From sequence record PQ349265.1: a DNA stretch of 64,000 bases; one strand, written 5' to 3'. The position numbers and the translations under genes were made by a program. Below are positions 3,007 through 53,710 of the stretch, in pieces (the stretch's first letter is position 1; each line of letters begins with the position of its first letter). The stretch is from Escherichia phage CJY920. The notes below the pieces were generated by a model. The model searched no databases. It was not told the DNA's origin and saw only the letters and a program-made list of their open reading frames with translations.

Positions 3007-4126
3007 TTTTAACCTTAACTGGGTCTATTGTTTCCAGTTTCGTTGCATTAGTGAACATATATAGATGAGTTACCGAATTATTATTGGATAATTCATGGAT
3101 GACTTCATCAACGTAAAATTCTGTTTTAAATTGGTTTTTACTATCATTAAAAATAATTTTAACGCCAGGAGTCAAGTTAAAATTACCGACAGTAGAACAT
3201 TTAGCATAACCATCGTATTGTGCCATAGTTTGAAGACGAATAGCTTCTTCATATCCATTCCTATAAGTCATTTCAGAATAAGCACCTGACCTTGATACTA
3301 CAATAGAGTTTTCTCCCTTTCCTGTAGTAATCATTGGCAATGAAGAATCTAAAAATGAATGCGCATAGATAGTAGCGTTTTTCATTGGGTCGCGTTTGTG
3401 AGGATTTGATTTAGTCAACCAAACGAAATCATATGCTAATGGATATTTTAATTCTTGGATGAATTGACCTATTAAAGATGGCTCACCGACAATCATTGGA
3501 TATGGTTCTTGATTTATCATCATATCATAGTCCATCATGTTAACTCCCATGATGTCTTGCCATACAAATACAAATTTGTCACTTCCTACAGCTAGAGCAA
3601 CTTCTCTGACATACGACAAATAGTTTTCAAATGTGCTAGTCCATGGAATATCAGGAACATAAGCATTTATAGCATTTATTGCTGGAGTTAATAACGTGCG
3701 ATCCTGATAAATGACACCAAGCATTTCCTTTATAGATTCACCTGCATCAGAGAAAAACGGTCTGCCAAATTTAAGATTTTCTATAGAATGAATAGTTCCC
3801 AATTCAATAGCAATGATGTTATCACCCTTTGAATCTACAGATACAGAAAAATGCTTACATCCATAAATTCGTGTTTTAACATTATTAATATCGTTTGCAT
3901 TAGCTACAGAAATCTGAATTATTTCATTTCCATCCATTTTTGTATGGATATTTTTAGAATCATAAAACTGCAGCATTCCTTCATTTCGGCCATAAAGAGA
4001 ATCCCGCATAGTTAATGTGGTAATAGTAGCAGCTAATTCAACAAATCTATTATTACTCCAAGAGTCGTAGCTATCAAATAATTTAACGCTGAGATTTGGA
4101 TATCCTGGGCGTTGCAACATACTCAT
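2951..4126 (-). CDS. 27: baseplate hub subunit gp27
   Basis: 391-aa ORF; T4 length and synteny. Confidence 0.9.
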
Positions 4127-52204: not shown

Positions 52205-52277
52205 TGGGAATTAGCCAAGTTGGTAAGGCATAGCACTTTGACTGCTAGATGCAAAGGTTCAAGTCCTTTATTCCCAG
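52205..52277 (+). tRNA. tRNA-Gln (anticodon TTG)
   Basis: Acceptor tgggaat/attccca; anticodon stem tagca/tgcta with loop ctTTGac; T-loop ttcaagt. Confidence 0.8.
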
Positions 52278-52278
52278 C

Positions 52279-52362
52279 GCGAGAATGGCCAAATTGGTAA
52301 AGGCACAGCACTTAAAATGCTGCGGAATGATTTCCTTGTGGGTTCGAGTCCCACTTCTCGTA
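52279..52362 (+). tRNA. tRNA-Leu (anticodon TAA), long variable arm
   Basis: Acceptor gcgagaa/ttctcgt; anticodon stem cagca/tgctg with loop ctTAAaa; T-loop ttcgagt; CCA encoded at 52363-52365. Confidence 0.8.
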
Positions 52363-52370
52363 CCAAATTT

Positions 52371-52442
<72 letters not shown>

Positions 52443-52454
52443 AAATTTAATTTA

Positions 52455-52527
52455 CTCCGTGTAGCTCAGTAGGTAGAGCACCTCACTTGTAATGAGGACG
52501 TCGGCGGTTCGATTCCGTCAATCAGCA
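52455..52527 (+). tRNA. tRNA-Thr-like (anticodon TGT) with non-complementary 5-prime acceptor strand; possible hybrid or pseudogene
   Basis: Canonical D, anticodon (cctca/ctTGTaa/tgagg) and T arms, but 5-prime ctccgtg cannot pair with 3-prime aatcagc. Confidence 0.5.
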
Positions 52528-52533
52528 TATCAA

Positions 52534-52607
52534 GGCCCTGTAGCTCAACGGTTAGCAGCAGTCCCCTCATAAGGGAAAGGTTACCAGTTCGAATCTGGTC
52601 TGGGTCA
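52534..52607 (+). tRNA. tRNA with CAT anticodon (Ile-2/Met type; T4 tRNA-Ile position)
   Basis: Acceptor ggccctg/ctgggtc (one U-U mismatch); anticodon loop ctCATaa; T arm accag-ttcgaat-ctggt; D stem imperfect. Confidence 0.6.
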
Positions 52608-52648
52608 TATTTTGAGAACATAAATACTCTTAGAAATAGGAGATATTT

Positions 52649-53215
52649 ATGTTCCATTACACTTATAAAATAACAAATAAAATTAATAATAAAATTTATA
52701 TTGGTGTGCATTCTACCGAAAATTTAGATGATGGATATATGGGTTCTGGTAAATTATTAAAAAGAGCCCAAGATAAGTATGGTATAGAAAATTTTTCTAA
52801 AGAAATATTAGAGTATTTTGATGATAAAGAATCTATGCTTGAAGCCGAGAAAAATATTGTCACAGAAGAGTTTTTAAATAGATCAGATGTGTATAATTTA
52901 AAACTTGGCGGTGAAGGTGGATGGGACCATTTAAATATTCCTGGGATGCTAAACCGGAAGAAAGATGCTAGCTTAAAAGGAGCTAAATCGTTTAAGTCAC
53001 GGTTTGAAAATGATATTTTACTTCAAGAAAAATATCGTAAAATTGGTTCAAATGTATTTAAACGTTTGTGGTCAACTCCTGAATATAGGGAAAAATTTTT
53101 AAATAATAGCAGATTTTTAAATAAGCATCATACTCCTGAAACTATTAATAAAATGAAAGAAATTCACGCTAAAATAATCACCAGAAAGGAGAAAAGAATT
53201 CCCAATTTGGTATGA
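52649..53215 (+). CDS. segB: GIY-YIG homing endonuclease SegB-like (188 aa; apparent C-terminal continuation in another frame at 53212-53313)
   Basis: YTYKITNKINNKIYIGVH...GYMGSG core; WSTPEYREKF repeat; lies inside the tRNA cluster as T4 segB does. Confidence 0.75.
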   Translation: MFHYTYKITNKINNKIYIGVHSTENLDDGYMGSGKLLKRAQDKYGIENFSKEILEYFDDKESMLEAEKNIVTEEFLNRSDVYNLKLGGEGGWDHLNIPGMLNRKKDASLKGAKSFKSRFENDILLQEKYRKIGSNVFKRLWSTPEYREKFLNNSRFLNKHHTPETINKMKEIHAKIITRKEKRIPNLV

Positions 53216-53313
53216 TGTGGATTCATTCATTAGATGAAAAAGTTTCTAAACGTATTAAGAAAACTGACCCAATTCCAGAAGGATGGTTTAAAGATCGAAA
53301 AATGAAATTTTAA
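53212..53313 (+). CDS. 33-codon ORF, likely frameshifted C-terminal tail of segB
   Basis: ATG overlaps the segB stop (gtATGAtg); MMWIHSLDEKVSKRIKKTDPIPEGWFKDRKMKF; 188+33 = 221 aa, the length I recall for T4 SegB. Confidence 0.35.
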   Translation: MMWIHSLDEKVSKRIKKTDPIPEGWFKDRKMKF

Positions 53314-53316
53314 TTA

Positions 53317-53390
<74 letters not shown>

Positions 53391-53393
53391 CCA

Positions 53394-53710
53394 AACAAGA
53401 AACCGGGTCGCTACCGGTAAGTCGTCGGACTGATGTTCCCTGGGTAAGGAATTGTGTTAATAAATCTTTATGATTTGTTGATGCCCTCTTACATCACAGC
53501 AGAAACGGCGCACAGAATTATCGATTCGAGGAAATATCTTTGCCGTAAGCCGAGTAGCGTTTTTGACGGAACGTTCGGATATGGTCGAGATATGGGCCTT
53601 TTAAAAATATTGAGTAGCGTCAACTACTTAATAACCGGGTTCGAATCCCGGCGTTTCGTACAAACACTTGCCTTAGCAGGTGGAACCCCGACAAGGTTGC
53701 CGCAAGGCTT
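53394..53710 (+). ncRNA. candidate small stable RNA region with tRNA-like elements (position of T4 rnaC/rnaD-type RNAs)
   Basis: No credible ORF; tRNA-like T-arm ccgggttcgaatcccgg at about 53633-53649; several hairpins; ends at a strong terminator. Confidence 0.35.

Follow-up and report, generated by a model that had tools for sequence, protein, structure and literature searches.

A Pro/Thr hybrid tRNA remnant lacking an acceptor stem in the tRNA cluster of a T4-like phage

Results

The stretch of DNA analysed here (the window; 64,000 nt of Escherichia phage CJY920, PQ349265.1) comes from a Tequatrovirus whose closest GenBank phages match it at about 95-96% identity over 10 kb. The tRNA genes form a cluster at 52205-53660, in which a hybrid gene stands between tRNA-Gly and tRNA-Ile. 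The cluster contains the following features.

52205-52278, + strand: tRNA-Gln
52279-52365, + strand: tRNA-Leu
52371-52442, + strand: tRNA-Gly (TCC), the intact upstream neighbour of the hybrid (ARAGORN; Rfam 65.8 bits)
52443-52461, + strand: Gly-Pro spacer (52443-52454) followed by the tRNA-Pro 5' acceptor strand CTCCGTG (52455-52461); collinear with T4 (1844-1862 of the T4 extract, L001) and ending in tRNA-Pro positions 1-7
52455-52527, + strand: 73-nt Pro/Thr hybrid tRNA remnant with a TGT anticodon and no acceptor stem (ARAGORN, Rfam model, pairing)
52462-52470, + strand: only remaining copy of the direct repeat TAGCTCAGT (9 bp), the deletion junction, at tRNA positions 8-16; the alignment gap ends here
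52471-52527, + strand: tRNA-Thr body, comprising the rest of the D arm, the anticodon arm (TGT), the variable loop, the T arm, the 3' strand AATCAGC and the discriminator A (T4 alignment)
52506-52516, + strand: GGTTCGATTCC in the hybrid T arm, matching the 5' core of the SegB consensus, GGTTCRANTCC (PMC2330249)
52528-52533, + strand: trailer TATCAA preceding tRNA-Ile, with CCA not encoded (ACCA in T4 and T6)
52534-52607, + strand: tRNA-Ile (anticodon CAT, called Met by software), the intact downstream neighbour (Rfam 52.4 bits; tRNA-Ile in the T4 record)
52649-53215, + strand: segB homing-endonuclease gene, frameshifted
53317-53393, + strand: tRNA-Arg (Rfam 69.2 bits)
53398-53513: rnaD homologue, T4-like
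53521-53660: rnaC (species 1 RNA) homologue, T4-like

The cluster is a mosaic. The Gln-Leu-Gly genes and the spacer after them belong to the RPN226/fPS-2/PD112 type, and Ile and segB to that of T4 (segB is 97.4% identical to that of T4 and 82.9% to that of fPS-2). For tRNA-Arg the window has the allele of fPS-2 and RPN226, which shows no sequence relationship to that of T4 and T6 (69.2 vs 48.8 bits). Such a mosaic would be the pattern expected from homing-associated co-conversion. The upstream flank is closest to RPN226 (99.2% identity) and the downstream flank to PD112 and T4 (97.1% identity), all three of which have intact Pro, Ser and Thr genes. The initial annotation, made from the letters of the window, had read the cluster in the frame of T4; this was right for the type of cluster, but the phage itself is a mosaic T4-like phage and not T4.

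The hybrid at 52455-52527 reads CTCCGTG TAGCTCAGTAGGTAGAGC A CCTCA CTTGTAA TGAGG ACGTC GGCGG TTCGATT CCGTC AATCAGC A. That annotation had described the D, anticodon and T arms as canonical and the 5' strand CTCCGTG as unable to pair with the 3' strand AATCAGC, and both descriptions hold. From 1-72 to 7-66 the opposed acceptor bases are C-C, U-G, C-A, C-C, G-U, U-A and G-A, of which only three of the seven can pair, two of them as G-U wobbles. The minimum-energy fold (-17.3 kcal/mol) consists of three hairpins (D, anticodon and T) and leaves both ends single-stranded, and forcing the RNA into a cloverleaf yields -11.0 kcal/mol, 6.3 kcal/mol worse than the open fold. With GCTGATT as the 5' strand, the cloverleaf becomes the minimum-energy fold at -25.4 kcal/mol. 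No substitute GCTGATT strand occurs on the + strand within 4 kb of the hybrid, and no alternative acceptor helix appears in the fold of the 247-nt Gly-hybrid-Ile transcript. The three hairpins themselves are free of disabling mutations.

The tRNA finders point the same way. ARAGORN, which in the same run calls Gln, Leu, Gly, Ile (CAT) and Arg, does not call the hybrid. A covariance-model scan, proposed with the initial annotation as a check, matched the body only: the Rfam tRNA model (RF00005) gives a local match at 52462-52519, covering model positions 8-63, with 47.5 bits and E = 3.8e-8, while the intact T4 tRNA-Thr scores 75.4 bits over its full length with the same model. A match of this strength restricted to those positions indicates that the resemblance of the body to a tRNA is far beyond chance and that the acceptor stem is truly missing. 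Measured against the RF00005 family, the hybrid has the D arm, the anticodon arm with its 7-nt loop and the T arm with a TTCGA-type loop, and lacks the 7-bp acceptor stem that closes the cloverleaf.

Alignment of the cluster with T4 (NC_000866) accounts for this structure. The two are collinear but for one clean 170-bp gap, whose ends lie inside TAGCTCAGT, a D-arm sequence common to tRNA-Pro and tRNA-Thr. In T4, tRNA-Pro (T4t005) starts CTCCGTG-TAGCTCAGT-TTGGTAGAGC and tRNA-Thr (T4t003) starts GCTGATT-TAGCTCAGT-AGGTAGAGC; the two copies of the repeat, at 1863-1871 (Pro) and 2033-2041 (Thr) of the T4 extract, are 170 bp apart, and a repeat finder places the two copies in fPS-2 at the same distance. 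The window has a single copy, with Pro sequence on its left and Thr sequence on its right. The hybrid therefore shows what is required of a deletion between repeats, namely two flanking copies in the relatives and one at the junction. The absence of Pro and Ser between Gly and the hybrid and the origin of the 5' end from another tRNA, plausibly Pro, which the initial annotation had proposed, are both borne out by this alignment. Its placing of the deletion within a shared D-arm sequence was also correct, although the repeat is the 9-bp TAGCTCAGT and not an 8-bp sequence. A T4 tRNA-Thr with the same 5' strand had been named as what would speak against a hybrid; in T4 this strand reads GCTGATT instead of CTCCGTG.

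The deletion with both of its ends, and the failure of the acceptor strands to pair, are directly observed. Window positions 52455-52470, together with the upstream spacer, correspond to the start of T4 tRNA-Pro, and the 170 bp lost comprise Pro from position 17 on, the whole of Ser with the spacer between it and Thr, and the 5' strand of Thr. The 66 nt at 52462-52527 (the repeat and the Thr body) are identical to T4 tRNA-Thr at 65 of 66 positions. Of the features of T4 tRNA-Thr, the hybrid keeps the body with the TGT anticodon and the place 6 nt upstream of tRNA-Ile, but the 5' strand GCTGATT, complementary to AATCAGC, has been replaced by CTCCGTG.

Two details of the hybrid were considered as signs of decay and rejected, as both occur inside or beside intact Thr genes elsewhere. 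The ATATCA tail also lies 3' of the intact Thr genes of fPS-2, PD112 and RPN226 and is therefore a normal allele, and the C at 52499 in the variable loop, the one mismatch to T4 tRNA-Thr, is shared with phage a48, whose Thr gene is intact. The tail (52527-52530), ATATCA vs ACCA in T4, leaves the hybrid without an encoded CCA, and none is encoded after tRNA-Gly, where the window has CTCA vs CTCCA in T4 (52443). CCA is likewise missing after the Gly and Thr positions in fPS-2, PD112 and RPN226.

The same junction is present in phage T6. There, CTCCGTG-TAGCTCAGT-AGGTAGAGC is base for base that of the window, likewise lies between tRNA-Gly and tRNA-Ile, and goes with the same loss of Pro and Ser. 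A 45-nt junction query, able to seed a match only across the junction, was run against 50,697 phage records that did not include the window's genome. It matched three, all T6: AP018814, its RefSeq copy NC_054907 and the independently sequenced MH550421. About 560 records of the GenBank phage collection contain the Thr body, and among them only those of T6 have the hybrid junction. A 31-nt junction pattern had no match in IMG/VR and a 42-nt pattern had none in metagenome contigs. The sole IMG/VR match to a 25-nt junction pattern (L003) was rejected as a genuine, unrelated tRNA-Pro with a matching 3' strand. With five intact Thr genes of this type, IMG/VR is uninformative as a denominator, and the GenBank phage collection was used instead.

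The T6 copies also bear on whether 170 bp might have been lost while assembling reads across similar tRNA genes. Short repeats are common to tRNA genes, and the adjoining segB differs by one base in a homopolymer, which could be a sequencing error. However, a 9-bp repeat is far too short for assembly collapse, the gap is exact with flanks that are otherwise collinear with T4, and the T6 genomes AP018814 and MH550421, produced independently of each other, have the same junction. As assembly errors do not account for one and the same junction in two independent sequences, the chance that the hybrid is an artefact of sequencing or assembly is negligible.

In T6 (NC_054907 / AP018814, 66642-66716; 1557-1631 of the T6 extract, L002) the hybrid is annotated as a 75-nt tRNA-Thr. 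As in the window, it is passed over by ARAGORN and matched by the Rfam model only in part (positions 8-63, 49.4 bits). Chihara et al. 2026 (PMC13096335) regard it as a normal tRNA-Thr; their tRNAscan-SE table lists T6 Thr at 68 nt and 62.5 bits without a pseudogene flag, the intact Thr genes of other phages scoring 65.5-77.5. Their cloning primer for 'T6 tRNA-Thr' starts at TAGCTCAG, and the clone therefore lacks the CTCCGTG 5' acceptor strand. A literature search for the T6 hybrid and for the classical T-even tRNA catalogues, which took in neither the T4 genome review nor Moen et al. 1978, found no published description of this Pro/Thr fusion, and the mSystems paper on T-series stocks makes no mention of tRNAs. 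A hybrid pseudogene formed by deletion between repeats is a known kind of event; the Pro/Thr fusion itself is apparently undescribed.

Apart from the deletion, the window and T6 have no private variant in common. At the upstream sites 52361, 52443 and 52452 the window has T, A and T (the RPN226/fPS-2/PD112 type) and T6 has C, C and C (the PST type). Downstream, the T6 hybrid has T in the variable loop and an encoded ACCA tail, in contrast to the C (52499) and ATATCA (52527-52530) of the window. T6 also has other spacer variants and a tRNA-Tyr gene downstream of Ile, whereas no Tyr gene follows Ile in the window. The nearest differences lie 10 nt upstream (52452) and 29 nt downstream (52499) of the repeat, and phages whose genes are intact lie as near to the window as T6 does, or nearer.

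Because the window and T6 have different flanking variants to either side of the junction, an independent origin of the deletion in the two phages appears somewhat more likely than not, although this call is based on about six variable positions in phages that recombine very often. The alternative, to which we give a lesser but appreciable probability, is a single ancestral deletion that was spread by recombination, with the flanks exchanged later in short conversion tracts. The junctions are identical, T-even tRNA clusters are mosaic (the window itself joins RPN226/fPS-2-type Gln-Leu-Gly and Arg with T4-type Ile and segB), and flanking markers are co-converted by SegB homing (PMC2330249), all of which would suit common descent. 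Yet the identity of the junctions is silent on descent, because any crossover within the 9-bp repeat yields the same junction. The lack of a further common private variant, the differences both close to the repeat and further out on either side, and the distance of T6 from the window favor two deletions.

Discussion

The T4 alignment, the silence of ARAGORN and the local Rfam match support the initial proposal of a hybrid gene or pseudogene, and the hybrid is very probably a dead tRNA gene that arose by a 170-bp deletion between the TAGCTCAGT copies of tRNA-Pro and tRNA-Thr. It would still be transcribed within the cluster transcript, and the D, anticodon and T hairpins of its RNA would be expected to fold, but an acceptor helix could not form and the RNA would likely be a poor substrate for RNase P. 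The acceptor/T-stem helix is recognised by RNase P. E. coli threonyl-tRNA synthetase makes use of G1-C72 and C2-G71, the first pairs of the acceptor stem; T4 tRNA-Thr has both, and the hybrid has C1-C72 and U2-G71 in their place. Disrupted tRNA helices lead to less RNase P cleavage and a lower yield of T4 tRNAs (PMC11143913), and threonine identity lies in acceptor-stem pairs together with the anticodon (PMC9976931). With the acceptor helix missing, the hybrid RNA would be neither matured nor charged, and from what is known of tRNA biology it is very unlikely that it is used in translation. The phage has lost tRNA-Pro(UGG) and tRNA-Ser(UGA), and by the same reasoning a working tRNA-Thr(UGU) has probably been lost as well. 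Of the neighbors, tRNA-Ile should need only its own structure for maturation. The tRNA-Gly 3' end, normally formed after RNase P cleavage at Pro, may now need cleavage in the A/U-rich spacer, which is speculation.

An acceptor-less Thr-like RNA might instead have been kept for another role, as a decoy or sponge for a host anticodon nuclease or another defense aimed at tRNAs, as a binder of threonyl-tRNA synthetase by way of its anticodon arm, or as a structured spacer guiding the processing of Gly and Ile. Phage tRNAs counter tRNA-cleaving defenses (PMC13096335). Both carriers of the hybrid retain undamaged D, anticodon and T arms, and the differences of the window from T4 there are neither private nor damaging. 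One further study is said to find that phage tRNAs counter tRNA-cleaving defenses. In the E. coli thrS operator, a mimic of the anticodon arm without an acceptor arm binds the synthetase (PMC9976931). Against such a role, the carriers are two lineages only among the roughly 560 records with the Thr body, and the relatives retain the complete gene, thus giving no sign of selection for the shortened form. Moreover, a young deletion would be expected to leave the hairpins intact, and in T6 the over-expressed clone that starts at TAGCTCAG, and has no CTCCGTG, failed to rescue infection from Septu (PMC13096335). Retention of the hybrid for a second function is accordingly improbable.

Given that the hybrid fails the acceptor-stem test that defines a tRNA, it should not be filed as tRNA-Thr but labelled a pseudogene or hybrid, both in the window phage and in the T6 reference genome. 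The real tRNA set of T6 is then Gln, Leu, Gly, Ile, Tyr and Arg. The error is inherited by phage tRNA counts, by codon-usage comparisons and by experiments that clone 'T6 tRNA-Thr'. tRNA finders disagree on such remnants, ARAGORN being silent and the published tRNAscan-SE call being truncated with no pseudogene flag. The hybrid is an ordinary gene remnant. It is of value mainly because it corrects annotation and, in a small way, illustrates tRNA-cluster evolution, being a clear natural case of phage clusters reshaped by short repeats common to tRNA genes, here beside a homing endonuclease that cuts tRNA genes.

In an ancestor of the window phage the genes likely stood in the T4-type order that is usual, Gln-Leu-Gly-Pro-Ser-Thr-Ile. 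The 170 bp between the TAGCTCAGT copies in the Pro and Thr D arms would then have been lost through single-strand annealing of these copies, recombination between them or replication slippage, which joined the tRNA-Pro 5' strand to the tRNA-Thr body. A possible trigger is a double-strand break by SegB at a Pro or Ser T-arm site, followed by resection and annealing of the flanking repeats. SegB is a GIY-YIG homing endonuclease that cuts inside tRNA genes at sites with the 5' core GGTTCRANTCC; cleavage of T4 DNA was detected and mapped at the tRNA-Ser site (PMC2330249). T4 tRNA-Pro and tRNA-Ser each have the SegB motif GGTTCAAATCC, and both motifs lie between the two repeats. Rearrangements of the T6 tRNA region have been shown to depend on SegB, with microhomology at the junction of the amplified repeat (PMC13096335). 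The locus and the endonuclease are the same in that case, and junctions fall at short homologies beside tRNA genes; however, tRNA-Tyr and segB were amplified in tandem there under Septu selection, whereas the window has a deletion in which a role for SegB is only inferred.

In the window, segB has A4 at 53171-53174 vs A5 in T4 and T6. The frame ends at 53215 after 188 aa and not 221, and the last 33 codons continue in another frame at 53212-53313 (full span 52649-53313). The frameshift may truly inactivate the gene, or it may be a sequencing error in the homopolymer. Since segB is frameshifted in the window and a 9-bp repeat can recombine without an induced break, the link to SegB is circumstantial; a SegB break in the deleted interval as the trigger of repeat annealing is a tentative reading, less likely to be true than false, and slippage or ordinary illegitimate recombination would account for the deletion equally well.

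It may also be asked whether the Pro-Ser-Thr deletion is recurrent and selected, either as self-immunisation of the phage against its own SegB by removal of the Pro and Ser T-arm sites or for a decoy RNA against a tRNA-targeting host defense. We see only a slim chance of this. SegB prefers to cut just 3' of CCAR (PMC2330249), and the missing encoded CCA after Gly and the hybrid might lower self-cleavage by SegB. A fourth match to the SegB core GGTTCRANTCC lies at 53638-53648, inside the rnaC homologue, as it does in T4 (3206-3216 of the T4 extract).

Losses from this cluster have precedents. The phage tRNA genes for Pro, Ser and Thr are dispensable in laboratory hosts. The psu-b deletions made in the T4 tRNA cluster in the laboratory in the 1970s likewise removed tRNA genes and left the phage viable. 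Fukada and Abelson reportedly found in 1980 that the classical T4 tRNA-cluster deletions end in short homologies between tRNA genes. Natural T-even phages have also lost tRNAs from the same cluster without loss of viability, as the hybrid phage has, T2 being without Thr (PMC2330249) and KIT03 without Pro.

The same cluster is rearranged in other natural phages too. In KIT03 (AP018932; 1343-1993 of its extract, L014), a segB-like gene lies between Gly and Ser and the Pro gene is absent, and in T2 (AP018813; 5628-6326 of its extract, L015) a reading frame lies between Ser and Ile and the Thr gene is absent. In PD112 (464-1072 of its extract, L004), a reading frame stands at the position of Gln in other phages. 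Among the eight phages compared, the working tRNAs of the window have three private substitutions, G to A at 52261 in the Gln T loop, T to C at 52289 in Leu and T to C at 52549 in the Ile D loop. By our reading, the change in Leu would fall in the D stem and turn a U-G into a C-G pair.
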